Source: Vulcanimicrobiota bacterium (GTDB lineage: Bacteria; Vulcanimicrobiota; Vulcanimicrobiia; Vulcanimicrobiales; Vulcanimicrobiaceae). From it: 64,000 bases of DNA. Of this stretch, positions 36,112-54,050 are shown in pieces. The notes under the pieces are model-generated. The model was given only the letters and a program-made list of their open reading frames with translations, was not told where the DNA came from and ran no database searches. The DNA lies in assembly GCA_963820825.1 (NCBI GenBank), contig CAWGBN010000002.1, positions 96,001 to 160,000 on the forward strand, read 5' to 3'. Position numbers and translations under genes: made by a program. The first letter of the stretch is position 1. Each line of letters opens with the position of its first letter.

Positions 36112-37092
36112 CTAGCCGAGGAAAGCGGGCGCCGTCTGCAGCCCGCCGCCGTTGCCGTTACCCCAGAGCGCGTACTGCAGCGATTGCTTGGAGTTCATCG
36201 AGGCCGCGCCGGTCTCGCCGCTGGGATTGATGGCGATCACACAATACATGTCGTCGTGCAGATTCGGCGCGGTTTTGGCCATGAATCGCATGACGTCGTT
36301 GCAAGCCTCTTGCGGGTGCGCGCCTTGCGCCATCCGCTGCACGATGAACATCGACGTGCAATAGTTCGCCATCACGTCGCCGTTACCGGTCGCCGACGCC
36401 GCTCCCGCCGCGTCGTCCGCGTAGTATCCGCAACCGACCAAGGGCGAGTCGGCAACGCGCCCGGGGATCTTCCAAGCCAGCCCGCTCGTCGAGCAGCCGG
36501 CCACAACGTGCCCGGCGCCGTCGATGCCGACCATGCCGACGGTGTCGTGATGATTCCGGTCGATCCAAAAGTCATCGTGGTTCGGCCTGTTCTTCCACTT
36601 CAACCACTCTGCGAGGCTGTGCGGCGTCAAGAGCTGCATCGGTTCGAATCCCATCGCGATCGCAAACGCAAGCGCGCCCTCGCCGGCCATGGTCGTATGC
36701 CGCGTCTTCTCCATCACCAGACGCGCGACGGAGATCGGATTCTTGATCTTATGGAGGTTGCAGACCGACCCGGCGCGGTGCGTCGTGCCGTTCATGATGC
36801 CGGCGTCGAGCTCGACCTCGCCCTGCGCGTTGGGAAGTCCGCCGTAGCCGACGCTATCGACGTTGGGATCGTCCTCGACGACGTTGATGCCTTTCTCGAC
36901 CGCATCCATGAGCGATCCGCCTGCGGCCAGCACCTGCGCCGCGCGCGCATTCGCCTCGATCCCCCAGTCCCACGTTGTAAGAAAGACCGCCCCGCCCGGC
37001 GCCGCCTGGATCGGCGCTGGGGTCACGGCGGCGAGCGTCGCCGTGGCGGCGCCGGTGGTTACCAGAAACGTACGGCGGTCGATTGGGTCCAC
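36112..37092 (-). CDS. Tat-exported N4-(beta-N-acetylglucosaminyl)-L-asparaginase (Ntn hydrolase)
   Basis: DRRTFL Tat motif; SVGYGGLP, HDTVG autocleavage site, STSG and GRVADSP. Confidence 0.9.
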   Translation of the reverse strand: MDPIDRRTFLVTTGAATATLAAVTPAPIQAAPGGAVFLTTWDWGIEANARAAQVLAAGGSLMDAVEKGINVVEDDPNVDSVGYGGLPNAQGEVELDAGIMNGTTHRAGSVCNLHKIKNPISVARLVMEKTRHTTMAGEGALAFAIAMGFEPMQLLTPHSLAEWLKWKNRPNHDDFWIDRNHHDTVGMVGIDGAGHVVAGCSTSGLAWKIPGRVADSPLVGCGYYADDAAGAASATGNGDVMANYCTSMFIVQRMAQGAHPQEACNDVMRFMAKTAPNLHDDMYCVIAINPSGETGAASMNSKQSLQYALWGNGNGGGLQTAPAFLG

Positions 37093-37111
37093 CTCGCATC
37101 GCTCCTTTCTT

Positions 37112-37570
37112 TCAAGCCGGTATGTAACGGGCTAGTTCGAAGATCTCGTCGGCCTCAAATCCAAGCCGTGCGTAGAACTCCTTGAGGTGCGGCTCGCGAC
37201 GCGGGAGCTCGACCATAACGCTCGACGCGTCGGTCTCGCGGGCGTACTCCACGACCCGCTCGACGAGCCGCCGCCCGATGCCGCCCTTCCGGCTGCGCTC
37301 CTCCACGTAGAGATCGCTCAAGAACCATATTCGGCGGCAGTGCCACGACGACCAGAGCGGATAGAGCGCAATGAAGCCGTGCACGCCGGCGCCGGTCCTG
37401 GCGATGAAGATCACCGAATCGCCCGCGGCAAACCGCTGCGCTAAGAATCGCTTCGAGCGCGCGACGTCGCAATGCCCGGCGAAGAACCGGCGATACGCAT
37501 CGAAGAGCGGCGCGAGGCCGTCGAGGTCCCGCTCTTCGGCTCGGACGATCGCGTAATCCGATGCCGCCAC
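37112..37570 (-). CDS. GNAT acetyltransferase
   Basis: LSDLYV...RKGGIGRRL and FYARLGF. Confidence 0.85.
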   Translation of the reverse strand: MAASDYAIVRAEERDLDGLAPLFDAYRRFFAGHCDVARSKRFLAQRFAAGDSVIFIARTGAGVHGFIALYPLWSSWHCRRIWFLSDLYVEERSRKGGIGRRLVERVVEYARETDASSVMVELPRREPHLKEFYARLGFEADEIFELARYIPA

Positions 37571-38542
37571 TTACCGTGCGCGGCTGACGGTCACGCCGAC
37601 CGGCTCGGTGAACCCGGTAATCGTCTTGAGCGCCGAGCCGGCGTCGGGATACTTCCACCACATGACGTTCGGCGCGCTGCCGATGTTCGGTCCGATGATC
37701 GTACTGCCTTCGATCCAGAACTGAATTATGTCAGTGGATCCCGCGAGCGTTATCGTGCGCACCTTTTTGCCGGAGCTCCCGCTGATCTTGAACTGGTAGA
37801 CGGTCGAGCCGTGGTAGCCGGCGCCCTGGTCTTCAACGGCAACGTACTTGCCGTCCCATTTTACGCCGCCCGGTACGTTGATCTGCTGATTCAGCGTGAC
37901 GTCGGTGAAGGACGTGCCGCCCGCAGCGACTTCCGCAAACTTGAAAAAGCCGTGGAAATCTCCACCCGAAACGTACAAGTTGCCTTTGCCGTCGTACGCG
38001 CAGTCGTAGTAGAGAAAGATCGACGGATCGGCGTACATGCTCGGCGTTCCCTTCGCGTGCTTGTAAAACGCGATGTTCCCCGAGCCGCTGCCGGAGACTT
38101 CGCCGATATTTGCCACCGCGAGCGTACCGGTCGTGGGATCGACCGAACAGCCGGTGGGGCCGTAACCCGCGTCGATCAGCGTCCGGATCGGCTTCGTGCC
38201 GCCGTGCGCGAATTCGTAGATTCGTTCGCTGCTCGTGATGAAGACGTTGCCTTGGGCGTCGACGCAACCGCTGTGAACCGCGGTGAAACCGCTGAGCGTT
38301 CCTTTCAGCTTGCCTTTTGGAAAGGAGTAGACGTCGACGAGGTCGGTGCCGAGATCGGAGACGTAGAGGAGATCGTGATGCTTTGCATCGGGAGCCATCC
38401 ACGAGTGCGGCATCCGCAGCCGCGCCGGCGCGCTCTGCGCTGGGGAGAGCGCGGCCGGTTGCAGAGCGCCGGCGTTACAGCCCGCTCCTGCGGCGATCGC
38501 CGCGGCAGCGGCAACGTAGCGGAACGAAATCCGAAGCCTCAT
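37571..38542 (-). CDS. Beta-propeller lipoprotein
   Basis: Lipobox GAGC; SWMAPDAK..LLYVSD; repeated blade motifs. Confidence 0.75.
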   Translation of the reverse strand: MRLRISFRYVAAAAAIAAGAGCNAGALQPAALSPAQSAPARLRMPHSWMAPDAKHHDLLYVSDLGTDLVDVYSFPKGKLKGTLSGFTAVHSGCVDAQGNVFITSSERIYEFAHGGTKPIRTLIDAGYGPTGCSVDPTTGTLAVANIGEVSGSGSGNIAFYKHAKGTPSMYADPSIFLYYDCAYDGKGNLYVSGGDFHGFFKFAEVAAGGTSFTDVTLNQQINVPGGVKWDGKYVAVEDQGAGYHGSTVYQFKISGSSGKKVRTITLAGSTDIIQFWIEGSTIIGPNIGSAPNVMWWKYPDAGSALKTITGFTEPVGVTVSRAR

Positions 38543-38554
38543 CCTGGGCCTCCC

Positions 38555-41500
38555 TTATAGCTTGACTTGCAGCGAAAAGTAGAGGTTGAGCGCGAGCGGA
38601 TAGTTACCGGAGTTCGGGTCGCCGTACGACGCGGCGAAGGACTGCGCGAAGTACGGATTCTCCGCAACGCCGTTCGCTTTGGCGTCGAATGGGCTGCTTC
38701 CGTTATAGAAGTAACCGCCGTTGTAGAACGTGTTCGAGGTGTAACCGCAGACGACGCTGTTCGCCGGGTATGCCCGCGACCACGGCTCGCTCGAGCCGCC
38801 GAAGCACTGGTTGACGAGATTAGTCACGACCAGGCGCCCGGAGACGCGCGGGGTGAAATCGTACGACATTTGCACGCCGAGATTAAAGTTCCACGGCTGC
38901 CGGAACTCGCCGAACGTATCGAACGTGCCCGTCTGCGGGTTGGGAATGAAGAGATAACCCGGAGTCGTGCCGTCGCTGGTCAGCGCCTTTCCGCACGACG
39001 TATAGTCGGCCATCAGCGGAGTTGAGGTAGCGATTCCCCGCGAGCCCTGATTGGCGAAACAGCTTCGCGGATCGAGCCCTTGAACGTCGGCCGGCGTACC
39101 GTAGGTCGTGCCTTCCAAGAGCTCCATCGCCGGCGTGAGGGCAAACTTCCCGTGACGGTAGTTCATGACCACCGCAAACGTATTGGGCGAGATGTACGGG
39201 AAGTCGAGGCCCGGAGCGTACCAGCCGTGGGGATCGAGCGTCGCCTCCGGCGACATATGGTAGTACGGATTGAGGATTGACGCCGACGGGCACGTCGGAG
39301 CCGGTATTCCCTTGCCGTTGGGCCGATAGCAGGGCGCCCCGCCGCCTGCTTTTGTGAGCGCGTTGAACTCTTCGATGTCTTGGTTATACTGGTCGACCGG
39401 GCCGATCGGGCTATTGAGGTAGTTGTTCCATTTCTCGGCCGAGTTCGTATACGTGTAGGCGAACGTTCCCGAGAATCCGTTCCTGCTGAAATCGCCCTTG
39501 GTAACCAACAGCTCCACCCCGTCAACGCGTTGCGTTCCCGCGTTGAACGACGGTGAGACGTTCAGGCTCGGAAGGTTCGGCGTCTCGTAGAGCTGGTCGG
39601 TCGCGTAGCGATAGTACGGCGTCAGCTTCACAGCCAGGTCCGTTCCCTTGAAGTGATGCTCGACCGAGAAGTCGTAGTTGTCCGAGAACTGCGGCTGCGC
39701 TTCGTGCAGCGGCGAGCTGTAGCCGAAGGGGATGAAGCCGAGCAGCTGCGAGGCAAGATTCGGCTCCAGCGTATTATACTGAATCTCGTAGTTCTGCGGC
39801 TGCTGCGCGTACCGCCCGAGCGAGGCACGCAGCACCGTATCGGGATTGACCGTGTAGGTCGCCGAAATGCGCGGCAGCACGTAGCCGACCGAATACGAGG
39901 ACGGATAGTTGTTGGTCAGCAGGATGCCGTCGGTTCCGTTCGGGTGAACGGTCTGTACCGGCGTCCCGGTCGAGCGGTCGATCGGGCAATTGAACGAAAC
40001 GTACGGCGTGTAGACGTAGATGCTCTGCGGCGGCTGGGGCACGAAGATCGGTTGCCGCGTCACCGGATTCACGCAAAACTCACGCTGCGCGGCGGCAAAC
40101 CAGAAGTTCATCGCCGGGTTGTTGGTATCGGCCAGGTCGTAGGTATCGTTTTCGAAGCGGACGGCCGCGTTGATATTCCACGCGTCGCCGGGACGCCACT
40201 GATCGCTCAGCGCCGCGCTGGTGATCTTCGGCGAGACCGCGTTGGCGAAGCCTTGATTTCCGGAGTAGGTCAGCAACATCGAGGCACCCGCGGTGCAGGC
40301 CGGCGCGTTCGAGGCAAGCTCGCCATCGCCGCACGGATTCTGGCCGTTGAATCCGCCGTAGGGACTGCCGAACTGACCCTGCGATACGTACTTGTTGCAC
40401 GGCGCGGGGTCGCCGACCGGATACTTCGGGCTGCTATACGTGGCGAAGCACTGCGAGCCGTTGGTGAAGTTGCTCACCTGCTGGCCCGACGTGTTGTAGT
40501 AGTTCTGGTTGTAGTACCGCAGGGTGTTCGAAGTGATGTAGGAGGCCATGCCCTCCAGCAAGTGCTGGTTGGAGATCTGATCGGCGAACTGCAGCTCGAG
40601 GCCGCCCGTGTGCGAATTCACCTCATACTGGTAGTTCGTAACGCCGAGCGTAACGTTGTTCCCCCAGCCGTTCGGGCTCGCACGGTTGGTGTTCGAGTAG
40701 AACGTGTAGCCGAAGAGCCGAACGTAGGCGGTCGAGCCGAGATTCTTCTGATATTGCAATTTCGCGATGCTGGACGTATCCCAACGGGCGTCGCGGAAGT
40801 TCGACGGCACGAGCTGCGCGATCTGATTGCCGTGCGCGTCGATCGGGCAGGCATTCGGTACGCCGGTAACGTTCGCGCAGCGTCCCGTCGGCGATCCGGG
40901 ATAGTAATAGGCGAGCACCCGGGTCGATGCCGGCGCGAGCCACGGCGTGTTACCGGGAAACGTGTAGAAGTCCGGCCACTGGTTGATGTTGCCGCCGTAG
41001 AAGTCGTGGGGAGGGTAGAGCGTCCCGTTGTTCTCGATCCCCAGGCCTAACGGTCCGGCATCGTCGAGACTCGAATAGTACTGCGTGTAATTGGCCGACG
41101 ACATGTAGAGCATCTGGACGTCGTCGCGCCCGGCGTCGTGCCGGTGGGGAATGCCGACGTGGAAGTTTGCGACGACGTCGCGGCTGTCGACGGCCGAGGC
41201 TTGACCGAAGTTCGAGGGATAGGAGCCGAAACACCCCGGATCGCTCGAGAGAAACTTCGTTGCCGGATTGCTATAAGTCGTGTTGTTCCGGCAATCGGGA
41301 TATACCGCAGGCCAGAACGATAGGAACGTCGTTTCGTACGACGGCCAGTACCCGTACGGGATCGTGTCGATCAGGCTTGCGCCGTTGAACTGATCGAAAT
41401 AGCGAAGAGCCTGATTCGTTCCGCTGACGCCGACGTAGTAGGAGAACATGCGATCCGGCGTCGAGCCGCCGGCTTCGAGCCGCGCGTCGTGATAGAAGGT

Positions 41501-42306
41501 CGGCGTTCCCATTGCAAGGCCGCCGACGGCAAAACCCGGATAAGTTCCGGTCTTGATGACTTGATTGATGAAGCCGGCGAGGCCCGTCGCATTTGCGTCG
41601 GCTTCGCCGCCGCCGGCATAGATCTGCAGCTCTTGCTGGCCGAGCGTCGTCTCGGAGTTCCCCGGATAGTTATCGAACGATCGGTTGATCGGTACGCCGT
41701 CGTACTCGTAGCCGATCTGATCGTAGTATCCGCCGCGAATGTAGACGGTCTGATTGACGCCGACTGATTCGGCGGCACGTACGAGCCGGGCATCGCCGCA
41801 ATCGCAGAGTAGGCGTTGTTCAAACCGCCTCCGCCGCCGAGCGTCGCCGCGGCGGTGGTCAGTCCCGGATTGACCGAGTATACGTCGGTGCCCGTTCCGG
41901 GGCGCACCGGACTGAGCGACGAGCGGGACGTGACGCGGGCAATCTGCTTGAGACTCTTCTGCAGCGCTATCGGCAGCGATTGGCTTTGATCGGCGAAGAC
42001 CGAGATGCCGGTGATCGCGACCGTATCGTATCCCTCGTGCACGACGGTGATGGTATACGTCTCGGGCGCGAGCGAGAGAAAGGTGTAACGGCCCGCGGCA
42101 TCCGTCGTGACCCGAGCGACTTGCGACGGACTCGTCGCCGTCACTTCGGCACCGGCGATCGGCGCCCGGGTCGACGCGTTGAAGACTGTTCCGGTAATCG
42201 TACCCGTCGTACCGGCTATCGCTTCTTGCTCTCCAAGGCAAACGAGCAACGCCGCAACGAGCAGCGCGCAGACTAACGAAGAGAGAGACCAGCTCCTCAA
42301 GTTCAT
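38555..42306 (-). CDS. TonB-dependent receptor with N-terminal carboxypeptidase-regulatory-like domain; one apparent frameshift near 41765
   Basis: ORF 42306 gives signal peptide, GTTGTITGTV and plug start; second frame continues VYIRGG..YEYDGVP through a barrel ending YFSLQVKL. Confidence 0.8.
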
Positions 42307-42389
42307 CCCTCCAACAGCAGCAACTCAGGAAGGCACTTAGCGCGTTTGAGCGGTATGCTCCTTCATTGCGCTTGCTATTGGAGGACACC

Positions 42390-42926
42390 ATGAATAGCTT
42401 ACTCACACGCAAGGCCGTCGGCGCGGCGATTGGCCTGGCTCTCTTGACCGCATGCGCGGGCAGCTCAAGCGCCGGCGGCGTCCCGGCTGCCGGATCCTCG
42501 ATGCCGACCACGGCGAGCCGCGATCGCGGCGCGACCTATCCGAATCTCAGCGGCGAATACGCCGGCAAGTTCGTCGACAATGCGTACGGGAAGGGCAAGG
42601 GGAGCGCGATCTACGCTCAGTACCAGAGCGCATTCGGCGGCCAGCTGACGATCAAATATGCGACGAGCACCCTCTCGGCCTCGGTCTCCCAGACCGTTAG
42701 CGGAAGTTCCGTCAACGGGAGCACGGCCGGCGGCGCGGGGAGCCTCTACTGCACGTTCTCGACGACCGCGACCTACGACAAAGCGACCCACATTTTAAGC
42801 GGCTCGTACACGGCGGCGTACGGCTGCGCCGGTGAAACCGGAACGTTCTCGCTCAAGCATCTCTGCGTTTTCAAGGGCACGACGCACGAAGATATCCGTC
42901 CCGATAACGGACCGCGCCCCTGCTAG
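42390..42926 (+). CDS. Hypothetical lipoprotein
   Basis: GGAGG RBS, ATG 42390; lipobox LTAC. Confidence 0.75.
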   Translation: MNSLLTRKAVGAAIGLALLTACAGSSSAGGVPAAGSSMPTTASRDRGATYPNLSGEYAGKFVDNAYGKGKGSAIYAQYQSAFGGQLTIKYATSTLSASVSQTVSGSSVNGSTAGGAGSLYCTFSTTATYDKATHILSGSYTAAYGCAGETGTFSLKHLCVFKGTTHEDIRPDNGPRPC

Positions 42927-45620
42927 TAGGATAGCGCGTTCGATAGGCCTTGATCTTGAGTCCAGCTCGCGCCTTCGGATAGTAGCTGCGCGAGGTCGGA
43001 CGCTTGCAGTTTCTGCCGGAGGCTGGCGTGGAGGCCGGCGATCGTCATCGTATCCGGCGGAAGCAGCTCCCAGCCGAACGTTCGGAACTGCTCTTCCGCG
43101 TAGCCGATGAGGCGCGCGCGCAATTCGCGGCCGCTCTTCGCCGGCCACGACGGCGAGATACGATATTGCGAGTGCGGCGAGGATTTCGTGCCGCGCCTTT
43201 ACCGCGAGCGCGAGCGCCCGGCGCGCGAAGGGCTCGGCCCGCGTCCGGTCGCCCGCTGCGAGGAGGGCGCTGGCGATGTCGTTGGTGAGAGACGTCAATG
43301 CCGCATCGCGATCGGCGAGTTCGGCGGCCTCGAGCAGTCGCCGCGCGGCGTTGTCGTGATTGCCGACGTTGTTCTCCCACTGGCCCCACCACTGCAAGGC
43401 TCGCGCCGTATCGTCGGCACGACCGAGCAATTGAAAGAGCGCCACACTCTCCTCATACCGCGCGCGCACCGAATCGGCTCCGGTGTCGCCGAAGGCCTCC
43501 GCGCACCGCCGGAGTACGTCGGCCAGTAGCCGCCGGTCGCCGCTATCGCGCGCAAACTGCAGCGCTTCTTCTGCCGCCGGTTTCGCCTCGTCGTAGCGCG
43601 ATTGCGGCGCGTATCGCGAAGCGACTTGCGAGAGCGCTCGCGCCAAGCCCCGCCGGTCGCCGACGCCTCGATAGAGCGCAGCGGCGATCAATGCCTCGTC
43701 GAGACACCTCTGCTCAGCGCCGGTGGAGCTATACAGCATCGAGAGCCCGTATCGCAGCCGCGCCTCAACCGACGCAGGCAATGCAAAGGCACCTTGCAGC
43801 ACGCAATCGCTCCACTCGATTCCTTCGGCGAGAAAGCCCAGCCGCAAGAAAAGAATCGTCGCATCCGCGACCAGTTGCCCGCCGAGCACGGCAGCGTTGC
43901 CTTCCTCGACGCTCCAACGCAAGGCCGCGCGCACGTTTGCAAGCTCTCGCTCGGCGCGTACGAGCCAATCCGCAGCCGGACCCTTCTCCCACTCGTCGTA
44001 TGCCGCGGCGGCAAACGCCGCGAACGCGGCGCAGTGGCGTCGCCTCGCCTCGTCAAGCTCGCCCGATTCGACGAGCCTCTCCCAGCCGTATTCGCGAATC
44101 GGCTCGAGCAGACGGTAACGCTGATCGGCTTCGTCGACGTCCACGACGACGAGCGAGCCGTCGGCCAGCGAGGTGAGCATATCGAGGATCCGCCACTCGT
44201 CGTCACCCTCCCCGCTGCAGACTTCGGCGGCGTGCGCGACCGTAAATCCCTTGAGAAAGACCGCAGCCCGGCGGAGAACCCGTCTCTCGTCGTCGGTCAG
44301 CAGCTCGTAGCTCCAATCGATGAGCGCGCGCATCGTCTGTTGGCGCGGACGCCGGTCGCGTCCGCCGGTCAGCAGGCGGAGTTCCAGATGCGAAGCGAGG
44401 CTCTCCACCGATATCGTTCGCACGCGCGCCGCGGCAAGCTCGATGGCCAATGCGATGCCGTCCAATCGCAAGCAGATCGCTTCGATCGCGGCCGTCTTGG
44501 CCTCGAGGTGGAATGCGGGATTGGCCGCGCGGGCACGGTCGGCGAAGAGCTGGACTGCCGAAGCCGGATCGAGCGTGGCGAGGCGATAGACGCGCTCGGC
44601 CGAGATATCGAGCGGTATTCGGCTCGTTGCGAGCACGGTCAGGTGCGGACACCGCTCGACGAGCCGAGCGACGATCGGCGCCACGTCGGCGACGAGATGT
44701 TCGCTATTATCCAAGACCAGCAGCAACTGGCGCCGCCTGAGAAACTCGATGAGATCGTCGAGCGGGTCGCCGTCGTTCGAAGGCTCCGCGCCGACGGCTG
44801 ATAGAATCGTACCGGCGATCAGCGCCGGATCGCCGACGGCCGAGAGATCGGCAAACCAAACGCCGTCGCGCTCCTCGTTGAGGCGGGCCGCCGCAATTTC
44901 CAGCGCGAGCCGCGTCTTGCCGATGCCGCCGGCGCCTGCGACGGTAACGACGGAACCTTCGTCTAACAGCGCCTCGACGCGAGCGAGATCGTCGTGGCGT
45001 CCGACAAAGCTCGTGCTCTGCCGGGGAAGATTGTTCGGCGGGGTTCGCAACGCGCGCAGCGGCTTGAACTCGGAGCGCAATCCTTCTCCGACCGCCTGAT
45101 ATATGCGCTCGGGCTCCTTGATGCCGCGCAGTGGAACGGTGCCGAGATTACGCAGCGTGATGCCGGCCGGAAGCTTTCCGAATGCCAGCTCTGCGGCAAA
45201 TGCGGAGAGCACGATCTGGCCGCCGTGCGCGGCGGAGAGCAGGCGCGCCGTGCGATTGAGGGCGGTGCCGAAGTAATCGCCGGAGCGCTCGTCGGTTTCA
45301 CCGGCATGGATCGCCATTCGAACGCGCAAGCCGTCGACCGCGCGAAAATCCTCGCGTTCGAACCGGCGCTGCACGTCGGTCGCAGCCTCTAACGCGTCGG
45401 CCGCACTCCAGAAGGCGGCACAGAATGCGTCGCCGATCGTTTTGAAGACGTAACCGCGCCGAAGCTCGATCGCTTCACGGAGGAGTTCGTCGTGACGGCG
45501 CAGCGCATCGCGCATTCCCTCGCCATACTGCTCCCAGCGCCGCGTACTCGCTTCGACGTCCGAAAACAAGAACGCAACCATCCCGGTCGGCAGAGCAGCT
45601 GGGGCATCGGGCACGTGCAC
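42923..45620 (-). CDS. Class III cyclase - STAND ATPase - TPR protein; apparent frameshift near 43115
   Basis: FLFSDVEAS, KTIGDA, GAGGIGKT, LVLDNSEH and LDGIALAIELAAA; the typical C-terminus ARLIGYAE.. is in the adjacent frame ending at 42923. Confidence 0.85.
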
Positions 45621-45638
45621 CTCTTCCGCCCGCGGGCA

Positions 45639-46334
45639 TCACGCGCCCTTCGCCGCCTTTTGCTCGCCTCTGCCCGGACGCGCAAAGAAGAGCGTCATCG
45701 CAAGCGCGGCGAGGATGGCGCCGGTGCACGGACCGGCGACATAGATCCACATGAGATCGGCCGCTCCGCCGAGGAGTTGCGGCGGGATCGAACGCGCGGG
45801 ATTCATCGAGGCGCCGCTGATCGGTCCCGCGGCGAAGCCGCAGGCCGCAACCGTTAGACCGACGGCGAGCGCCGCTTGTTTACCGACGACCGCCTCTTTT
45901 GCGGTCATGAGGATCACGAGCATGAGCAGAAACGTCAGCACGGCCTCAACGATTGCCGCCTGCGCGTGCGTGTACGAGGGACCGGGATGACTCGCGCCCA
46001 GGACGAGCGCGTGACCCCAGAGCGCGAAGAGCAGCAGTGCGGCGCCAAAACCACCGGCGAACTGTGCGAGCCAATACCAGAGCATCTGCGCCACCGGCAT
46101 CGCTCGGCGCACGACGAAACCGAGCGAGACGGCCGGATCGATGTGGGCGCCGGAGACCTGCGAGAAGGCGTAGATCATCGCCGCGGTGATAAAACCGCGC
46201 GCCAGCCAGCGCGAAACGTAATCGACGTGGCCGGCACCGGTGTAATACAGCACGTCGACGCCGGTCGCGACGAGCGTTTGGAAGAACGTGCCGAGGAGCT
46301 CGGCACCGAGCTTGCGTGCCACCTCCGATTTCAT
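45639..46334 (-). CDS. MIP/aquaporin channel
   Basis: AELLGTF, SGAHIDPAVS, SGASMNPARS and WIYVAGP. Confidence 0.9.
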   Translation of the reverse strand: MKSEVARKLGAELLGTFFQTLVATGVDVLYYTGAGHVDYVSRWLARGFITAAMIYAFSQVSGAHIDPAVSLGFVVRRAMPVAQMLWYWLAQFAGGFGAALLLFALWGHALVLGASHPGPSYTHAQAAIVEAVLTFLLMLVILMTAKEAVVGKQAALAVGLTVAACGFAAGPISGASMNPARSIPPQLLGGAADLMWIYVAGPCTGAILAALAMTLFFARPGRGEQKAAKGA

Positions 46335-46476
46335 ACCCGTACTCGCCGCCCACCCAAGCGGGCGCGTTCGATCTATGGCAAGTTGGGGCTGCGCAATCGC
46401 TCAGAGCTCCAGCATTCGTCGGCCGCGCCGATAGGGCGCGGCCGAAGGACTAGAAATAACCCCGCGAAGCGGTGGC

Positions 46477-48027
46477 TTAGTTGTAGTGGCGCTTGTCGCG
46501 CAGCATCGTCACCGGCGCGACCGGCTTCGATAGCGCGGCAACCAGCTCGGCCCGACTCTTCACGTTAAAGGTTTGGAAGAGCTGCGAGAGCTGGTTGCGG
46601 ACGGTGTTCGGACTGCGGCCGAGAACCGTTGCGATCTCCGCGTTTCGTCGTCCGGCGCGAACGAGCTCGAGCACTTGCCGCTTCGCCGGCGGAATCCGAT
46701 CGAGACGCAGCACCGAGGTATTCGTCGCCTCCGCGACGCGGCGGGCGATCCAGCTGTGCGGCCAGGGGTCGATCTTGCGCGCGGCGCGCTGCACCCATTT
46801 GCGATCTTTCGTTACGTCGTAGAGCGCCAGTGCGCAGAGCGCGGCACGCCATGCATAGTTGAAATCTTCGAAGATCGACCAGGCTTCGGTGAGGGCGGCC
46901 TTGCCCTCGTCGACGTCTCCCAACCGAAGCCACGCCACGCCTTGGGAGTATGCTTCAAATCCCTTGACGCGCGGATCGGTGCCGTACGAAAGAATCGGGA
47001 TGACCGACGTCGTCAGCGTCCGGAATCGCGCGAGGTATTGCTCGGCGATGGCCGGATCGTCGTGCGCGAAGAGCTCCGCGAGGACGAGCAACGCCGACCG
47101 TTCCTCGCCGGTGACGTCGTTCCACGAGACGCTCTGCGCGATCTCGTGCGCCTCTTGAATCTGCTCGGTCGCGAACGCATACTCGCCGGTGTTACGGGCC
47201 AGCAGCGCTCGATCGAGGAAACAGAGGACGCTCCAGTGATTGGATGGCGCGAGCCGCGCCGCTCGGCGGAAGCCGGCGAACGCGGCAAGCTCGTTTCCGT
47301 CGAGCTCGTCGATCGCCGCGAGAAAGCGCGTGACCTGGAAATGCTCGAGCTGCAGACCCTTCGTCCACGGCAGCCCTTCGAAGATGCTGCGGACCCGGTC
47401 GGCGACCTCGCGCAACGGGAGCTCGCGACAGAGCAGCGCAAGCGTGAAGAGCGCGTTGGCCCGGAAGTACTGGTCGGCCGCTTCGGCGGCATCGAGCTCG
47501 TCGAGCGCCTTCTGCAGCTCGTCGACCTGGCGAAGAATCTCGCCGCGGCGCAACGCGATCCACGAGAGTAGAATATGCGCCCGCGCGCGATTATTCGGAT
47601 CGGCCGAACGCAGCTCGGTCGAGGCTGCCTGCTCGGCCTCGCGGTGGTCCTGCCTCATCCATGCAATAAGCGCTTTATAATGAAGGGCGTCGTAATACCA
47701 GGCGCTCTGCGGCGAGAGCTCGTTGAGCGCCCGCTCGATCAGGCGCGTCCCGGCGACGTAATCTCGCGTGAGTCCCAGCGCGGCACCGAGCAAGACGTCG
47801 CGCGCTACCCGGACCTCCGGCGACGCCTTCGGAACCTCCGAAAGCGCGCCGATGATCTCGACGTACCGGCGTTCCCGCAGCGCGAGGCGCGCGCGGGCAA
47901 GAACGGCGTCGTAACCGTCGCCGATCTCAACGAGTTCACGGCAGCGGTCAAAGTCCGCAGCCGTGAAGGCTTTTTCGAACTCCACCGCGTCAAAGCCGCG
48001 GTGGGTCAGTGCAGCGCTTGTCAACAT
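46477..48027 (-). CDS. Helical-repeat (TPR-like) sensor with C-terminal LuxR-type HTH
   Basis: C-terminal PPAKRQVLELVRAGRRNAEIATVLGRSPNTVRNQLSQLF...SRAELV; remainder is Ala/Leu-rich helical repeats; GGGG before ATG 48027 (alternative TTG 48051). Confidence 0.85.
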   Translation of the reverse strand: MLTSAALTHRGFDAVEFEKAFTAADFDRCRELVEIGDGYDAVLARARLALRERRYVEIIGALSEVPKASPEVRVARDVLLGAALGLTRDYVAGTRLIERALNELSPQSAWYYDALHYKALIAWMRQDHREAEQAASTELRSADPNNRARAHILLSWIALRRGEILRQVDELQKALDELDAAEAADQYFRANALFTLALLCRELPLREVADRVRSIFEGLPWTKGLQLEHFQVTRFLAAIDELDGNELAAFAGFRRAARLAPSNHWSVLCFLDRALLARNTGEYAFATEQIQEAHEIAQSVSWNDVTGEERSALLVLAELFAHDDPAIAEQYLARFRTLTTSVIPILSYGTDPRVKGFEAYSQGVAWLRLGDVDEGKAALTEAWSIFEDFNYAWRAALCALALYDVTKDRKWVQRAARKIDPWPHSWIARRVAEATNTSVLRLDRIPPAKRQVLELVRAGRRNAEIATVLGRSPNTVRNQLSQLFQTFNVKSRAELVAALSKPVAPVTMLRDKRHYN

Positions 48028-48138
48028 GGTCGTCCCCGGTTTAATCAACAATATGCATGGTAAAAGGGCCCGCGGTCTATACCACCGGACAATGCCGGAA
48101 GTTACTTAGTACATTCGTCTGCCTGGTTCCTTCCCGGT

Positions 48139-48504
48139 CTAGCCGTGCCCACCGCTATGAGGGACCGGGCCCCCGCCGACTGAGTCCATGTGACGAGGGA
48201 CCGGGCCGCCGCCGACCGAGTCGAGATGGCGGGTCCGGGCATCCTTACGCGGGACCGGACCACCGCCGACGGAGTCGAGGTGGTGGATGCGCGCCGCCGC
48301 GTGCGGGACGGGACCGCCGCCGACCGAGTCCATGTGCCGCATATCGGGACGCGGAACCGGACCGCCGCCGACGGAGTCGAGGTGGTGCATCATCGTTTGG
48401 TTAGCGCTTGGAAGGGGGGAACCGCCGGCAAAGCCACCGCCCGCACATCCGCCGAGCATAGCTCCTGCGAGGACGAGGCCGGCCACAGCGATCATCTTGC
48501 GCAT
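48139..48504 (-). CDS. Lipoprotein-type precursor with five identical DSVGGGPVP cores
   Basis: AAAGGG RBS; signal peptide with lipobox LGGC (Cys20); five in-frame repeats differing only at synonymous sites. Confidence 0.85.
   Translation of the reverse strand: MRKMIAVAGLVLAGAMLGGCAGGGFAGGSPLPSANQTMMHHLDSVGGGPVPRPDMRHMDSVGGGPVPHAAARIHHLDSVGGGPVPRKDARTRHLDSVGGGPVPRHMDSVGGGPVPHSGGHG
48160..48378 (-). repeat. Five 27-bp coding repeats (48352-48378, 48304-48330, 48250-48276, 48196-48222, 48160-48186)
   Basis: Consensus GAC TCN GTC GGC GGN GGY CCS GTY CCK; spacers of 21, 27, 27 and 9 nt. Confidence 0.95.
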
Positions 48505-48761
48505 CTCTGTTTACCCTTTCAGCGCCGGGAGGCGCCAGGAAGCATAAAAGGTAGTACGAATATACTAGTACCAAAAAGCCTCCAGGGATAGGGCCGCTTG
48601 GCAAACTTTGCAGAAACTAGATAAACCTAGCGGATGGCTACGACAAGATGTCGGCAAACAGCTCAGCAGGCCTCTCACTTCGAGAGGTCTAAGGGTGTTT
48701 GCCGCGGTTTGGAAGGCCCTTCCCAACCGCTAATCTCCCTTGAGAAGAAGGAACCAACTCT

Positions 48762-49769
48762 ATGACTCACTCTCTTCTTCGCGTGCGCAGGCAATTGTTA
48801 ACGGCAGCGTTGCTTGCGATCGTCACTCCGGCGATCGTAGCCTGCAGCGGGACCTCATCGTTTGCGCCCTCGGCGCAGACGCCGTCCGGCTCGGCAGTAT
48901 CGGACGGCGTACGCCACTTCGGCTCGACCTCATGGAACTTTTCAACGCTGGACGATCCGAACAATCCGTCGTACAGCGAGCTGCTCGGCATCAACAACGA
49001 AAAGAAGATCTGCGGCTACTATGGCGCCGGCACCACCGGCGATCCCGCCAACGGCTTCTGCCTCGCCGAGCAAGGTAACGCCCACTTCCGCCAGCACGAC
49101 TACCCTACCGCGCTAGACACCTACGTCACGTCGCTGAACAACACGAAGGCGTTCGCGGGCTGGTATTTGAGCAACTTCGGCCCGACCTTCGGCTTCATTA
49201 TGCAGCACGGGGTCTGGACGAGCTACAAAGATCTCAAGCTCCGCAAGGGGCACACGAATATCACCAAGATTCTCGGATTGAGCGACGCCGGTCTGGCCGT
49301 CGGCTTCTACGTTGACGATGCCGGCGTGAACCACGGATTCGAGCTCAACTCAACCGTCGCGAAGTATCACCCCATCGTCCCGCCCGGCGGCATCAGCGTC
49401 GAGGCGACCGGAATCAACGGCAAGGGTGATATCGTCGGCTTCATGACGACCGGGAACGGCGATACGAAGAGCTTCCTCTTAAAAGGAGGCAGCTTTACCA
49501 TCTTCGCCTATCCGAAATCCCAGAACACGCAGGCGCTCGGCGTCAACTGGCAGGACCAGGTCGTCGGCTCGTTCGTCGACGCCTCCGGGAACACGCACGC
49601 CTTCTTGTTGACCGATCCGCTGAGCCATCCGTCGTGGATGCAGATCGACGAACCCAAGGCCGCCGGACCGACCGTGCTCACGAGCCTGGAGAACCACGAC
49701 TATATGGTCGGGTACTACGTCGATAGCGTCGGGCACACCAACGGCTTCTTAGCGACGCCGGCAAAGTAG
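48762..49769 (+). CDS. HAF-like extracellular repeat lipoprotein
   Basis: AAGGA RBS; lipobox IVAC; GIN..G.IVG.Y.D..G..HGF repeats. Confidence 0.8.
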   Translation: MTHSLLRVRRQLLTAALLAIVTPAIVACSGTSSFAPSAQTPSGSAVSDGVRHFGSTSWNFSTLDDPNNPSYSELLGINNEKKICGYYGAGTTGDPANGFCLAEQGNAHFRQHDYPTALDTYVTSLNNTKAFAGWYLSNFGPTFGFIMQHGVWTSYKDLKLRKGHTNITKILGLSDAGLAVGFYVDDAGVNHGFELNSTVAKYHPIVPPGGISVEATGINGKGDIVGFMTTGNGDTKSFLLKGGSFTIFAYPKSQNTQALGVNWQDQVVGSFVDASGNTHAFLLTDPLSHPSWMQIDEPKAAGPTVLTSLENHDYMVGYYVDSVGHTNGFLATPAK

Positions 49770-49788
49770 GGCGGAGAACCCGCCCTAC
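49766..49788. terminator. Hairpin between convergent genes (terminator or REP-like)
   Basis: GTAGGGCGG-AGAAC-CCGCCCTAC, perfect 9-bp stem. Confidence 0.5.
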
Positions 49789-49803
49789 GCCCGTGCCCCG
49801 GGA

Positions 49804-51201
49804 CTACTCCGTATCGGGCGGGTAGTGGCTCGTGGGCTGGTGGAGGAAGAAATCCTTGCCGTATTTGGCCGGGATTACTTTGAACTTGCGCGGCGGTTGT
49901 GTGAAGTCGAACGCATCCGATTCCGGTGAGCGGCCCGCGCATCGCTGGCCGACAGCCGTCCGAGGCCGAACTGGTCTTCGATGAATCGCAGAATGCTGCC
50001 GTGCTCGTAGGGGACGTGAGACACGTAGCCCTTTCTTTGCATACGGTGAGATGATCAGCATCGGCAGCCGCAAGCCAAGTCCGTCGTAGTCGACGAAGGC
50101 AGGCGCGACCGGGATCGTACCATCCGCCGTAGTCGTCCCAGAAGATGAAGATGGCGGTCGAGTCCCAATACTTCGACTGTGCCGACGGCGTTGACCAGCG
50201 ACGTCTACCCACGACGGCCCGGTTTTGGAGCCGCTGCCGGCGTGGTCGGAGTTCTCCCACGTCGGCGTGATCCAGCTGACCGCCGGCAAATTGCCGTTCG
50301 AAAGGTCGTTGAAGACTTGCGTTTGCGGCGTGATGATTTCTCGTCTTCCAATCCGGACCGTTGTAGATGTGGTTGATCGCCTGATAGGCGCTCCAGATAC
50401 CCAGATCGCCGTTGACCGTCGCGGTGTAGAATCCCCACGAAACGCCCGCGCTGTCGAGCTCGTCTCCGAGGGTCGTCGGATCCCAGCACACGACTTCGTT
50501 CCCCGACGGAATCTGACGCTGCTGTCCGACCTGGAAATCTTATCGCCGGATCCACCGGGACAGCCCCAAGCACCGTCGGGATAGTTGACCGCCGATTCCG
50601 CCTGCCCGGAGATAATGTACTGGTGCGAAATGAAGCTGCTCGCGTCGAAGTTCGACGCGAACATTTGATCGGCCAGCACGTACTGCTTGGCCATTTCGAA
50701 ATAGGGCTTCGTTTCGGTGTGCGGCACGTAACTGTACGTTGGATTCGGGTTCGGGCAAGGGGGCCGGGACCGGCCGCCGCACCCGACGTACTCGTTGTTG
50801 AAGCCGTTCATCCGGCAGTTGGTACCGGGAATGCTTCCCGGTGCCGTTGCAGGCGGCAAAAAACGAGTTCGAGCTGTGGTCGATGTCCCAGGACGTTTCG
50901 AGGCCGACCGGCTGCAGCGTGATCTTTTGACCGCTGGAGTTGATAGCCGTACTTTGCCGTCTTCGCGCCGGGGAAACCGTAGAAGAGGTTGTTGAAGCTC
51001 GCGATTCTCTTGCACGATGATGATGACGTGTTGAATCTTGCCTCTGGCCGGATCGCGCAGCTCCTCGAGGACCGGCGGCGTACGCTGCGGCGCGGAGAGT
51101 GAGGCTAAGGGTAGGGCCGGAGCGGGGCCGGCCGGCGCACCGCCGCCGCAGGCCGTGAGGCCGGCGACGCCGGCGATGGCGAACGATAAGCGGCGAATCA
51201 T
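49804..51201 (-). pseudogene. Phosphoesterase/phospholipase C paralog with about 10 single-base indels (sequencing error or pseudogene)
   Basis: ATG 51201 overlaps the upstream stop; homology to 51198-52595 runs full length across three frames. Confidence 0.75.
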
Positions 51202-52595
51202 TGGTCGTCCGGGAGATGGTGATCGGAAGGTTGATGCATAAAGTAATCCTTGCTCAGTACCGTTGGGATTATTTTGAAGGTGCGCGGAGGCTGTTTGAAG
51301 TCGAACTCCTTGACGATGGAGTTGGCGCGCGTGTCGCTTGCCGAGAGACGCCCCAAACCGAACTGGTCTTCGATGAACTTGAGAATGCTGCCGTGTTCGT
51401 AGTGAACGTGCGCGACGCGGTTCTTCGCATATGGTGAGATGATCAGCATGGGAATCCGCATCCCCAAACCGTCGTAGTCTACGTAATCCGGCGGCTCGGG
51501 ATCGAACCAGCCGCCATAATCGTCCCAAAAGATGACGATCGCGGTGGAGTCCCAGTATTGCGATTGCCCGATAGCGTTGACCAGCGTCGCAACCCACTGC
51601 GGTCCGGAGGTCGAGCCGGAGCCGGCGTGGTCGGAGTTCGTCCAGGTTGGCGTCACCCAGCTCACTGTCCGCAGCTTTCCGTTATAGATGTCGTCGAGAA
51701 ACTGCGTCGGCGGGCTGAAGACGTCTTTCTTCCAATCAGGCCCGTAATAGATGTGTTTGATCGCCTGATAGGAGCTCCAGATCCAGGGATAGTTGGAGTA
51801 CGCGACCGCGTAGAAAGCCCACGAGAGACCGGCATTGTCGAGCTCGTCGCCGAGCGTGTTGGGATCCCAGCAGACGACTTCGTATCCGCTGGGAATCTGG
51901 CGTTTCTGGCCAACCGTGGCGATCATGTCGCCCGAGCCGCCCGGACACCCCCACGCGCTCCACGGAAAGTTCACCGCCGACACCGCCTGCCCGGCGATGA
52001 TGTATTGGTGCGAGATGAAGCTGCTCGCGTCGAAGTTCGACGCATACATTTGGTCGGCGAGCACGTACTGCTTGGCCATATCGAAGTACGGCTTCGTCTC
52101 GCTGTGCGGCACGTAGCTGTACGGCGGATTCTGATTCGGACACGGCGCGTAGTGCGCGCCGCAGCCGAAGCCTTCGTGGTCGAAGCCGTTCATCTGGCAA
52201 TTCGTTCCGGGAATGCTTCCCGTACCATTGCAGGCCGCGAAGAAGCCGGAGGAGTCGTGTTCGATGTCCCAGGTGGTGGCGAGGGTGATCGGCTGCAGCG
52301 TGATCTTCGTTCCGGAGGTATTGTAACCGTACTTCGCCGTGGTCGCTCCCCTAAAACCGTAGAAGAGGTTGTTGAACGAGCGGTTCTCTTGAACGATGAT
52401 CACGACGTGTTGAATCTTGCCCTTGGCCGCACGCCGCTGACGCATCGGCGCGACCAGCAACCGCGATGCAGCCGGTGGTTGAAGCGAGCCGAGCGGCAGA
52501 GCCGGTGGGGTCGCGCTCGAGCCGCCGTTACAGGCCGACAAGAGCGCGGCACAGGCCGCGGCGAGATACGCCGTATTTACACGCATCTTGCGCAT
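51198..52595 (-). CDS. Phosphoesterase / phospholipase C family lipoprotein
   Basis: Lipobox LSAC; QHVVIIVQENRSF, SFISHQY and WDDYGGW. Confidence 0.9.
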   Translation of the reverse strand: MRKMRVNTAYLAAACAALLSACNGGSSATPPALPLGSLQPPAASRLLVAPMRQRRAAKGKIQHVVIIVQENRSFNNLFYGFRGATTAKYGYNTSGTKITLQPITLATTWDIEHDSSGFFAACNGTGSIPGTNCQMNGFDHEGFGCGAHYAPCPNQNPPYSYVPHSETKPYFDMAKQYVLADQMYASNFDASSFISHQYIIAGQAVSAVNFPWSAWGCPGGSGDMIATVGQKRQIPSGYEVVCWDPNTLGDELDNAGLSWAFYAVAYSNYPWIWSSYQAIKHIYYGPDWKKDVFSPPTQFLDDIYNGKLRTVSWVTPTWTNSDHAGSGSTSGPQWVATLVNAIGQSQYWDSTAIVIFWDDYGGWFDPEPPDYVDYDGLGMRIPMLIISPYAKNRVAHVHYEHGSILKFIEDQFGLGRLSASDTRANSIVKEFDFKQPPRTFKIIPTVLSKDYFMHQPSDHHLPDDQ

Positions 52596-52622
52596 GCGCT
52601 TACTCCTTGCGATTTGGTGAGT

Positions 52623-54050
52623 TTACTCTTCGTCGGGCCAGCGATTGTCGGGCGGCTGGTGCAGGAAGTACTCCTTGTCCAACACCGACGGAATCACTTG
52701 GAACGCGCGTGGCGGCTTCTTGAAGTTGAAGCAGTCTTTCTCCGGCGACGTGGCACGCGTGTCGCTTGCGGCCAGGCGCCCGAGACCGAACTGGTCCTCG
52801 ACGAACCTTAGAATGCTTCCATGCTCGTAGTGCACGTGCGAAACGAAGCGCTTCTTCGCATAGGGTGAGACGATGATCATCGGAATCCGCAGGCCGAGCC
52901 CGTCGTAGTCGGCGTAGGCCGGCGCCTCAGGATCGTACCAGCCGCCGTAATCGTCCCAGAAGATGAAGATTGCGGTCGAATCCCAGTACTGCGACTCGCC
53001 GATCGCGTTGACCAGCGACGCAACCCAAGCCGGACCGGTGTTCGCGTTGCAGCCGGCGTGGTCGGAGTTCTCGCAGGTTGGGGTGATCCAGCTGATTTGA
53101 CGGAGCTTTCCGTTCGACACGTCGTTGAAGAACTGCGTCTGCGGGGTGATGACGTCGCTCTTCCAATCGGAGCCGTAGTATACGTAGCGATTCGCTTGAT
53201 AGGCGCTCCAGATGTTGCCGTCGCCGTTGAGCGAGGCCGTGTAGAACGCCCAGGTCACGCCCGCTTCATCGGCTTCTTGACCGAGGGACGTGTCGTTATA
53301 ACAGGCTTGTTGATAGCCGTACGGCACCTGGCGATCGGGGCCGACGGTCGAGATCATGTCGCCCGAACCGCCGTCGCAGCCCCACGCACCCCACGGGTAG
53401 TTTACCGACGACTCGGCCTGTCCGGCGATGATGTACTGGTGCGAGATGAAGCTGCTTGCGTCGAAGTTCGACGCGTACATTTGATCGGCGACGACGTACT
53501 GCTTGCCCATCGCAAAATAGGGCTTCGTCTCGGAGTGCGGGACGTAGCTGTACTGCGGGTGCGAGTTCGGACACGGCGGCCCGCCGCTATGTCCGCAGCC
53601 GACCCACTCGCGATTGAAGCCGTTCATTTTGCAGTCCGTGCCGGGGATGCTGCCCGTGCCGTTGCACGCCTGGAAGAACGAAGTCGAGCTATGGTCGAGA
53701 TCCCAGATCGTCTTCAGGCTGACCGGCTTGAGCTCGATCTGGTTACCGTTGGAGTCGTAGCCGTACTTGGCGGTGGTTGCACCGGGAAAGCCGTAGAGCA
53801 AGTTATTAAAAGAACGATTCTCTTGAACGATGATGACGACGTGCTTGATCTTGCCGCTCGCGGTGTGATGGCGATGGAAGGGCTCCACCGCTTCGGTAGC
53901 GCGGGGCGCCGATTGCAGAAAAGCCGGAAGACCCGGCGCGCTGCCGGCAACGCCGTTGCCGGCGGGGATACTGGAACCGTTGCAGGCCGAAAGTAAGAGC
54001 ACCGCGGCCGCAACGGCGAGCGGCCGGCTCAAGGGTGGATTACAACGCAT
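52623..54050 (-). CDS. Phosphoesterase / phospholipase C family lipoprotein
   Basis: GAGGAG RBS; lipobox LSAC; same motifs as its neighbour. Confidence 0.9.
   Translation of the reverse strand: MRCNPPLSRPLAVAAAVLLLSACNGSSIPAGNGVAGSAPGLPAFLQSAPRATEAVEPFHRHHTASGKIKHVVIIVQENRSFNNLLYGFPGATTAKYGYDSNGNQIELKPVSLKTIWDLDHSSTSFFQACNGTGSIPGTDCKMNGFNREWVGCGHSGGPPCPNSHPQYSYVPHSETKPYFAMGKQYVVADQMYASNFDASSFISHQYIIAGQAESSVNYPWGAWGCDGGSGDMISTVGPDRQVPYGYQQACYNDTSLGQEADEAGVTWAFYTASLNGDGNIWSAYQANRYVYYGSDWKSDVITPQTQFFNDVSNGKLRQISWITPTCENSDHAGCNANTGPAWVASLVNAIGESQYWDSTAIFIFWDDYGGWYDPEAPAYADYDGLGLRIPMIIVSPYAKKRFVSHVHYEHGSILRFVEDQFGLGRLAASDTRATSPEKDCFNFKKPPRAFQVIPSVLDKEYFLHQPPDNRWPDEE

Follow-up and report, generated by a model that had tools for sequence, protein, structure and literature searches.

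The stretch of DNA considered here (hereafter the window: 64,000 nucleotides, positions 96,001 to 160,000 of contig CAWGBN010000002.1 in assembly GCA_963820825.1, from a Vulcanimicrobiota bacterium) carries on its reverse strand a two-gene cassette composed of a small exported precursor, in which the nonapeptide DSVGGGPVP is repeated five times, and a regulator with a helical-repeat domain and a LuxR-type helix-turn-helix (HTH), a layout that suggests a peptide and its receptor. An earlier sequence-only reading of this DNA had described an exported precursor of 121 residues with five identical cores, lying 111 bp upstream of and co-oriented with a 516-residue helical-repeat protein that ends in a LuxR HTH. 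Each of these elements was recovered: the open reading frame (ORF) of the precursor has a lipobox and the 9-mer counted five times, the gap is 111 bp when measured from the ATG at 48027, and the second protein is modelled as a superhelix and matches PF00196 at its end. The features of the two genes are as follows, where TPR stands for tetratricopeptide repeat.

48139..48504, minus strand: exported precursor gene, 121 aa with the stop codon counted in (ORF list; homologues of the same layout in the protein search; frame fixed by core variation at third codon positions only)
48445..48504, minus strand: predicted signal peptide with lipobox L-G-G-C, Cys20 (sequence rule; lipobox kept in orthologous precursors)
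48352..48378, minus strand: core copy 1, residues 43-51 (sequence)
48304..48330, minus strand: core copy 2, residues 59-67 (sequence)
48250..48276, minus strand: core copy 3, residues 77-85 (sequence)
48196..48222, minus strand: core copy 4, residues 95-103 (sequence)
48160..48186, minus strand: core copy 5, residues 107-115 (sequence)
46477..48027, minus strand: regulator gene, 516 aa from the ATG at 48027, stop codon counted in (ORF list, homologue lengths, start of the alignment)
46723..47988, minus strand: TPR-like superhelical sensor domain, residues 14-435 (AlphaFold2 model, structural alignment)
46531..46689, minus strand: C-terminal LuxR/GerE-type HTH, residues 447-499 (PF00196, E 1.7e-08)

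The precursor and the regulator

The precursor starts with a short basic N-terminus (M-R-K), followed by a hydrophobic stretch, the lipobox at residues 17-20 and a Gly-rich stretch. Both marks of a bacterial lipoprotein are present, a lipobox Cys after the signal peptide and a signal peptidase II in the genome (LspA, PF01252, 115 bits), and the protein is predicted by sequence rule to be exported through a Sec-type signal and lipidated. The five copies of DSVGGGPVP, which start at residues 43, 59, 77, 95 and 107, are separated by linkers of 3-9 residues rich in Arg, His and Met. The AlphaFold2 model contains only the signal helix (residues 3-18), the remainder being coil with a predicted local distance difference test (pLDDT) score below 50 (mean 49.1).

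The repetition is exceptional in this genome: when every stop-to-stop segment with 40 aa or more was searched in the six frames of the 2.98-Mb assembly, two or more [DE]xxGGG[PLI] motifs were found in one out of 40,670, the precursor ORF itself. Six of the 27 nucleotide positions of the core vary among the five copies, every one of them at a third codon position and without any amino-acid change, and in 34 other loci with at least three identical 7-mers nearly all of the 135 variable nucleotide positions are third positions too. Since the copies differ at third codon positions only, the reading frame of the precursor is real and the unit is kept by selection at the peptide level. Tandem Repeats Finder reports no more than a weak 54-nt array in this gene (2.6 copies, 78% matches), and the core repeat is neither a DNA repeat nor a very recent duplication. 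Two other identities were considered for the units and rejected: a Bacteroidetes-type O-glycosylation motif at D-S-V, as many orthologous units have no Ser or Thr at the second position, and RTX-type calcium repeats, which differ in residue order and belong to a nonapeptide beta-roll context not found here.

The longest ORF of the regulator gene (46477-48051, minus strand) opens with a TTG that adds 8 residues, giving 524 aa; the ATG at 48027 was taken as the start because homologues mostly have 513-516 aa and their alignment begins there. The protein is cytoplasmic, with neither signal peptide nor transmembrane segment. An AlphaFold2 model based on a 28-sequence alignment (pLDDT 86.1, predicted template modelling score 0.78) consists entirely of helical repeats, about 12 helix pairs arranged in a TPR-like superhelix, and residues 1-435 match no Pfam family above the cut-off, TPR included. 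Sequence matches in the PDB (GerE, DesR, VpsT, NarL, TraR and others) are confined to the HTH part, and the profile search against the PDB, taken as far as E 1, yields no RRNPP receptor. The Pfam scan of the regulator gave no match to the LuxR acyl-homoserine-lactone autoinducer-binding domain, nor to AAA, NB-ARC or NACHT at E up to 0.01, and the NCBIfam models of autoinducer-binding regulators align to its HTH only (25.8 bits, the cut-off being 215.6).

By structure, the closest match of the sensor domain is domain III of MalT (1hz4; VIA-align Z 21.6, root-mean-square deviation 5.5, 337 of 366 residues), which spans regulator residues 67-423. Receptors of signalling peptides follow in the same comparison, with Z values of 20.6 for RapI in its apo form, 18.7 for Rap with peptide, 17.9 and 17.2 for AimR, 16.7 for NprR, 16.3 for a plasmid Rap, 15.1 for RapH and 14.2 for PlcR. 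As far as the model goes, the fold is compatible with that of peptide receptors and non-diagnostic, the TPR matches being generic. The regulator is best described as a MalT-type C-terminal half, that is, a sensor domain and a LuxR HTH without the ATPase.

Precursor-regulator pairs across the phylum

A search with just the sensor domain gave 642 representative clusters (E up to 0.001), and the domain has matches in 250 of the 401 genomes of the phylum that were sampled, distributed very unevenly: 245 of 296 genomes in one family (f1), 3 of 5 in a second (f2), 1 of 30 in a third and none of 69 in 18 other families, with 78 of 79 in genus g1. These tallies take in eight genomes flagged as unpublished, all of them with a match, and the other results rest on none of those eight. 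The regulator family is often present in two to four or more copies per genome.

Orthologous loci (45, one genome per species scanned, regulators 69-96% identical) preserve the arrangement of the window: in 44 of them a lipobox ORF in the same orientation, bearing tandem units, stops 49-186 bp 5' of the regulator gene, and in the exception, L036, the precursor gene is split between two frames. The expectation of the sequence-only reading that the flanks of regulator homologues would carry lipobox ORFs with repeated cores was thus borne out, with different cores in the distant paralogs described below. Orthologues have as few as 2 and as many as 9 or more copies of a unit that itself varies, so that a simple pattern of the D-S/V-V/I-G-G type occurs at least twice in just 22 of the 45 loci; the others have units such as DSVGGGLPK or DSTGGGIIL, units that begin with Glu, or units devoid of an acidic residue. 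One of these cassettes, L030, lies on a contig labelled Candidatus Acidiferrales (Acidobacteriota) and is nearly identical to that of L035, a Cybelea metagenome-assembled genome (end branches 0.008 and 0.021), a likeness for which a binning error is more likely than a transfer.

A further 75 regulators, 27-78% identical and encoded at other genomic places, constitute the paralog set. An automated test, which looked upstream on the same strand for an ORF that encodes 30-260 aa, has an N-terminus resembling a signal peptide and contains the relaxed motif [DE]-x(1-3)-G-G-(G/Q)-[PLI], was positive for 21 of the 75 paralogs, and for 12 with the strict motif; the control, 2,181 upstream regions of long ORFs in the genome of the window, gave 22 and 1, respectively, figures whose ratios are descriptive rather than a statistical test, related genomes being non-independent. 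Inspection by eye added a precursor for 13 more paralogs (L085, L088, L006, L137, L147, L153, L123, L139, L142-L144, L152 and L154), which the filter had lost because of length, of an N-terminus that is not basic or of a different unit. Five of the remaining paralogs are doubtful and 36 have nothing. The 54 paralogs without a motif-bearing upstream ORF were also searched on both strands and downstream, with any match in 8 of them and none convincing. Two loci, L127 and L134, have divergent lipoproteins whose relation to the paralog regulators is unclear.

The precursors of the family measure from 51 to about 230 aa, the extra length being due to copies of the unit. Distant ones are short, several of them of 51-66 aa (51 aa in L103) and with one unit, placed at the C-terminus or close to it, and in three loci of the f2 family (L142-L144) the lipoprotein ends in a 7-8-mer repeated two or three times, for example EGSHPPY. 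Short precursors with C-terminal units have the layout of pro-peptides, unlike folded proteins. A hydrophobic residue followed by Pro is found no more than 18 residues past the lipobox Cys in 61 of 61 lipobox precursors, at exactly 10-11 residues in 48 of them (control: 163 of 344 lipobox ORFs of the genome), an element that may mark a shared processing or sorting step.

Unit types fall on regulator clades in a quick maximum-likelihood tree of 64 regulators, in which support was measured by the Shimodaira-Hasegawa-like approximate likelihood-ratio test (SH-aLRT) only and the unit labels were computed by script (the label 'no ORF found' at L085 and L088 is due solely to the script having searched too short a stretch). 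In the genomes with several cassettes that were examined (G141, G265 and G287), the regulators form three sister clades with SH-aLRT values of 99-100 each, joined at 90: the first is accompanied by DSVGGGPP-type units in 5, 12 and 13 copies, the second by DVVGGGPVH-type units in 6-8 copies, and the third has no precursor gene. At a finer scale, the regulators of L012 and L042 are 86% identical and residues 1-40 of their precursors match at 38 of 40 positions, and the repeated units are wholly different. Retention of the leader, replacement of the unit and divergence of the receptor is the course that pherotype evolution takes in Rap-Phr systems (Even-Tov 2016, as cited in PMC10075063), and the unit switch between L012 and L042 resembles it by analogy; concerted evolution of the repeat array could give this result too. 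When 12 pairs with a unit switch were contrasted with 18 pairs that share their unit, regulator positions that change along with the unit were in no more than weak excess, at residues 81-160 and 241-280 (ratios 1.2-1.4).

Some paralogous loci depart from this general picture. The genome of the window contains a second cassette, L006 (G000:C2:277418-281800), whose regulator is 30% identical (E 1.4e-48) and whose small ORF encodes 80 aa with a hydrophobic N-terminus lacking Cys and with Gly-rich units of the D-G-G-G type; this kind of small protein recurs 5' of paralogs in three other genomes (L137, L147 and L153). A single Gly-rich unit flanked or trailed by a pair of Cys is found in L141, L154, L136, L152, L093-L098 and L156, which suggests a variant of the peptide closed into a loop by a disulphide. 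Five paralogs of 32-39% identity (L112, L115, L116, L117 and L130) share an upstream Gly/Val-rich frame with a conserved G-I-P-P-hydrophobic end and no clear signal peptide, which could be another small gene or conserved DNA that happens to be read in frame. The regulator genes of L106 and L107 (34-36% identical, one genus) are situated directly 3' of a gene for a family-5 solute-binding protein (SBP_bac_5, E 6.8e-07 and 1.7e-09), a proximity that lends anecdotal support to a step of peptide import.

Control region, host and neighbouring genes

The sequences around the precursor gene that could control the cassette are listed below.

48028..48138, minus strand: spacer between precursor and regulator, 111 bp, with no terminator-like site within; co-transcription is probable
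48551..48574, minus strand: AT-rich block, 24 nt, nearly invariant, about 50-70 nt 5' of the precursor start codon (alignment of 45 upstream regions)
48595..48612, minus strand: second conserved upstream block, which holds an 11-bp palindrome (upstream alignment)
48513..48536, minus strand: conserved 5'-leader element, a putative hairpin beside the Shine-Dalgarno sequence (RNAalifold, 20 loci)

About 200 nt 5' of the precursor gene are unusually conserved in the alignment of the 45 upstream regions. The 18-nt core of the AT-rich block occurs in 41 of the 45 orthologous loci with no more than 2 mismatches and, with 3-4 mismatches and an unchanged distance to the small ORF, in some paralogs of 40-54% identity; in L092, which has lost the small gene, the block stands immediately before the regulator. 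It is a candidate -10 region and/or operator, and a scan of 45500-48900 with the sigma-70 consensus gave 0 promoter-like sites. The leader element was folded by RNAalifold into 16 pairs, one of which shows a compensatory change, so the element is conserved and its RNA structure putative; a comparison of 46000-49200 with Rfam (E up to 1) gave two chance-level matches and no known RNA element upstream. The spacer 48028..48138 folds no more stably than shuffled sequences (z +1.35). Taken together, precursor and regulator would form one operon with a conserved promoter/operator that is possibly autoregulated.

Both conserved upstream blocks were found once in the genome, and no regulon could be proposed from them. 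The 11-bp palindrome has three further copies there, in apparent repeated mobile sequence or inside an ORF; the repeated sequence that bears it at G000:C8:39812 and C8:409400, beside similar ORF ends, is probably a mobile element unrelated to the cassette. An inverted repeat of five bases with a ten-base spacer, seen in the upstream consensus, was discarded as a candidate, since the window has it in imperfect form.

The host is a soil bacterium represented by a Candidatus Cybelea-like metagenome-assembled genome; homologues with names, as well as related loci, belong to Candidatus Cybelea and the Baltobacteraceae, in the Eremiobacterota (the Vulcanimicrobiota of NCBI, kingdom Bacillati). The genome has one above-cut-off match to Omp85/BamA and the window encodes a TonB-dependent receptor, so that an outer membrane is likely and the diderm host assumed by the sequence-only reading is supported. 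Nine genes for family-5 solute-binding proteins (OppA/DppA type) are present in the genome, none of them tied to the cassette.

Sixteen neighbouring ORFs were scanned with Pfam, namely the ten large ORFs between 32576 and 60420 and six others. They encode Mo-hydroxylase subunits, a TonB receptor, a cyclase-STAND protein, an aquaporin, an HAF-repeat protein, phosphoesterases, a SpoIIE phosphatase and DnaE, and three are without family, among which those at 35869-37185 and 37472-38560. At the Pfam level, neither tailoring enzymes nor genes for immunity or dedicated export were detected in these 16 ORFs. The claim that no tailoring enzyme for a ribosomally synthesized and post-translationally modified peptide (RiPP) is adjacent therefore holds at that level over the scanned neighbours, two of the ten large ORFs having no family.

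Just 3' of the cassette lies a gene (42795-45620, minus strand, 941 aa; kept in 40 of the 45 orthologous loci) for an N-terminal adenylate/guanylate cyclase domain, a STAND NTPase (AAA_22/NB-ARC) and TPRs, in which no HTH was detected. On the 5' side, three tandem phosphoesterase genes (49715-54050, minus strand; PF04185, phospholipase C/acid phosphatase family) have lipoprotein-like starts, and the one nearest to the cassette (49715-51597) is broken into two frames that overlap, which points to a frameshifted gene or an assembly error. A phosphoesterase homologue is present 5' of the cassette in 43 of the 45 loci, and these enzymes are candidate regulated exoenzymes; no upstream motif in common with the cassette was found. 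A 335-aa HAF-repeat (TIGR02913) lipoprotein (48762-49769, plus strand; in 24 of the 45 loci) is encoded divergently from the control region of the cassette. The TonB-dependent receptor-like protein (38555-42511, minus strand) is unusually long, with 1,318 aa, in a phylum whose envelope has been little studied.

Known systems, rival explanations and significance

The RRNPP systems are defined in PMC10075063 by a five-criterion signature, which includes a small Sec-exported propeptide (validated 21-50 aa; detector default 10-100), a TPR receptor of about 250-500 aa and adjacency, with an intergenic distance of -50 to 191 bp. Intragenic duplication of the unit is reported for Phr (Even-Tov 2016, as cited in PMC10075063), and PMC10075063 and PMC4873490 describe signalling of this kind through cytoplasmic receptors as characteristic of the Firmicutes and of the mobile elements they carry. 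Like the systems so described (Rap-Phr, NprR-NprX, PlcR-PapR, PrgX, Rgg-SHP and AimR-AimP), the cassette joins a small Sec-exported pro-peptide, by prediction, to an adjacent cytoplasmic TPR-like protein, its 111-bp spacing is within the range given, several cassettes may occur in one genome, and the sensor domain is structurally near RapI, Rap with peptide, AimR, NprR and PlcR (Z 14-21). The TPR character of the receptor is evident in structure only, and the binding of a peptide is here a proposal. Unlike them, the precursor is a predicted lipoprotein of 121 aa, over the propeptide limit, with five identical Gly/Pro-rich units; the receptor, with 516 aa, is marginally above the usual size, has a C-terminal HTH of the LuxR/GerE type instead of an N-terminal one of the XRE type and lacks sequence similarity to any solved RRNPP receptor; the order is peptide and then receptor; and the host is a member of the Eremiobacterota/Vulcanimicrobiota with an outer-membrane marker. 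The cassette resembles an RRNPP system on the five-point signature and yet is not a member of that family, because of the lack of sequence relation, the C-terminal LuxR HTH and the non-Firmicute host.

The regulator also shares with MalT and the other large ATP-binding regulators of the LuxR family (LAL) a TPR-like (SUPR) sensor domain followed by a C-terminal LuxR-type HTH, but it has no STAND/NOD ATPase, for which reason it is not placed among them, and its 516 aa compare with about 900; unlike MalT, it has as its genetic partner the gene of a small exported peptide and not a sugar regulon. In the sex pheromone systems described for enterococci, a lipoprotein precursor likewise yields a re-imported peptide that is sensed by a cytoplasmic TPR regulator, although the signal there is the cleaved signal peptide, whereas the units of the cassette sit in the mature part. 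The yeast alpha-factor precursor contains several identical copies of a short peptide separated by spacers, and its product goes through the eukaryotic secretory pathway and is perceived by a surface G-protein-coupled receptor; the precursor of the cassette is like it in its repeated identical units, without homology. No described system with this layout was found in a full-text literature search, most subscription journals being outside its coverage. The cassette would give RRNPP-kind logic a new phylum and a new receptor architecture, for which the support from comparison is good.

The favoured explanation is a peptide/receptor cassette of RRNPP-like operation and of a new family, a reading whose chances can be put at even. 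What the analysis establishes is the layout, the export and lipobox signals as judged by sequence rule, the peptide-level selection on the unit, the pairing in orthologues and in many paralogs, the match between units and regulator clades, and the TPR fold joined to a LuxR HTH. The processing, release, import and binding of the units, and the direction of regulation, are proposed as follows. Sec would export the pre-pro-lipoprotein, which would receive its lipid at Cys20; the mature part, devoid of structure, would then offer five DSVGGGPVP units between basic, His-rich linkers, and proteases of the envelope or the extracellular medium would free them. The units, or slightly longer forms, would be imported, most simply through an oligopeptide importer of the ATP-binding cassette type with a family-5 solute-binding protein, and in the cytoplasm they would settle in the concave side of the TPR-like domain of the regulator encoded next door. 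The LuxR-type HTH of this regulator would then alter transcription, acting through the conserved upstream blocks on at least the operon of the cassette. With five copies in each precursor, the yield of signal per translation event would be raised, and paralogous cassettes with different units would be separate channels. Such a cassette could carry a signal between cells or report to the cell on proteolysis in its own envelope, two possibilities that share the even estimate between them, and the latter is worth keeping because of the outer membrane and the lipid anchor. A broader picture, in which lineage-specific communication in a diderm soil phylum with hardly any cultured members runs over several peptide channels, the units being released, re-imported and read by private MalT-type TPR-LuxR receptors and the duplicates evolving into pherotypes, is put slightly short of even; if true, it would be the first case of an RRNPP-like system outside the Firmicutes and with a receptor architecture that is not homologous.

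Several observations weigh against a peptide/receptor cassette. The lipid anchor and the outer membrane hinder a diffusible signal. The TPR domains of the APC/C, LGN and OGT reach Z values of 19-20, level with Rap, and in Foldseek Rap appears only at ranks 22 and 29, amid generic TPR proteins. About half of the distant paralogs (36/75) have no precursor-like ORF upstream, and neither does the close regulator clade of L084, L086 and L089. The heart of the unit, G-G-G-P, is kept even between paralogs that are 30% identical, which is unusual for a specificity determinant. The kinship among the genomes makes the enrichment figures overstate their significance, and the neighbourhood is syntenic in genus g1 (phosphoesterase 43/45, cyclase-STAND 40/45, HAF-repeat 24/45, aquaporin 16/45); therefore, the pairing in orthologues alone says little about a functional tie, and the case rests on the paralogs. 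The signalling module proposed by the sequence-only reading is partly supported, by the linkage, by cores that track regulator clades even after duplication within a genome, and by a fold compatible with a peptide receptor, whose matches are not peculiar to RRNPP; re-import of a released peptide and its binding to the regulator stay a proposal.

The main rival is a regulator and its target, an explanation considered rather unlikely, in which the TPR-LuxR protein senses another ligand, as MalT does maltotriose, and switches on a small envelope lipoprotein (for instance, a disordered His/Met-rich metal-binding protein or a surface-variable repeat protein) without any feedback, both genes having been duplicated and having drifted together. 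The best structural match is precisely the ligand-sensing domain III of a LuxR-family protein, MalT; the neighbours in the Atlas are TPR_MalT or LuxR-type regulators (scores of about 0.9, a lead only); and half of the distant paralogs have no small gene. Tandem-repeat surface lipoproteins vary fast through concerted evolution, which could also explain the unit switch between L012 and L042. The linkers of the precursor in the window are indeed rich in His and Met, but His is not conserved, with almost none in the repeat region of L017, and what stays is the Gly/Pro unit. Moreover, no fold is predicted for the precursor, in precursors as small as 51 aa whose one unit is C-terminal, hardly any sequence is left to perform a task in the envelope, and a regulator with its target does not explain why paralogs in unrelated contexts should each have a private small gene with its own unit (28% vs 1% in the control).

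The lipobox and the fixed hydrophobic-Pro element kept in all precursors, together with a regulator in the cytoplasm without signal or transmembrane segment, would also suit a sentinel of export, in which the regulator binds the units of unexported or mislocalised precursor and reports on the capacity of Sec or lipoprotein processing and not on density. Neither crossing of the outer membrane nor re-import would be needed and the repeated units would lend avidity, but there is no precedent for such a device in the data of this analysis, the diversification of units between paralogs of one genome is left unexplained, and single C-terminal units in short precursors suit release over avidity, so that it is held to be very unlikely. 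Multi-core precursors are typical of several RiPP classes, and the precursor of the window is multi-core as well; an antimicrobial or RiPP-like modified peptide, with the LuxR-type protein as activator of its pathway, could in addition be related to the Cys pairs that flank the unit in L141, L154 and L093-L098, which could form a disulphide loop. Tailoring, immunity and dedicated export genes are nevertheless missing from the 16 scanned neighbours, the export signal is a lipobox and not the leader of a modifying enzyme, and the core in the window has no Cys and is neither Ser/Thr-rich nor of another pattern typical of modification, all of which makes this last explanation extremely unlikely.

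A peptide/receptor cassette is also readily accessible to experiment: the ligands, predicted to be 7-11-mers without modification, are open to synthesis, the receptor of 516 aa is soluble, and the natural variants provide cognate and non-cognate controls. Among the sampled genomes of one Eremiobacterota family, 245 of 296 encode the sensor family, frequently more than once. If the peptide/receptor reading is true, peptide pheromone circuits arose more than once and function in cells with an outer membrane; for a phylum of which little but metagenomes is available, the cassette would then offer an initial way into social or envelope-sensing behaviour.

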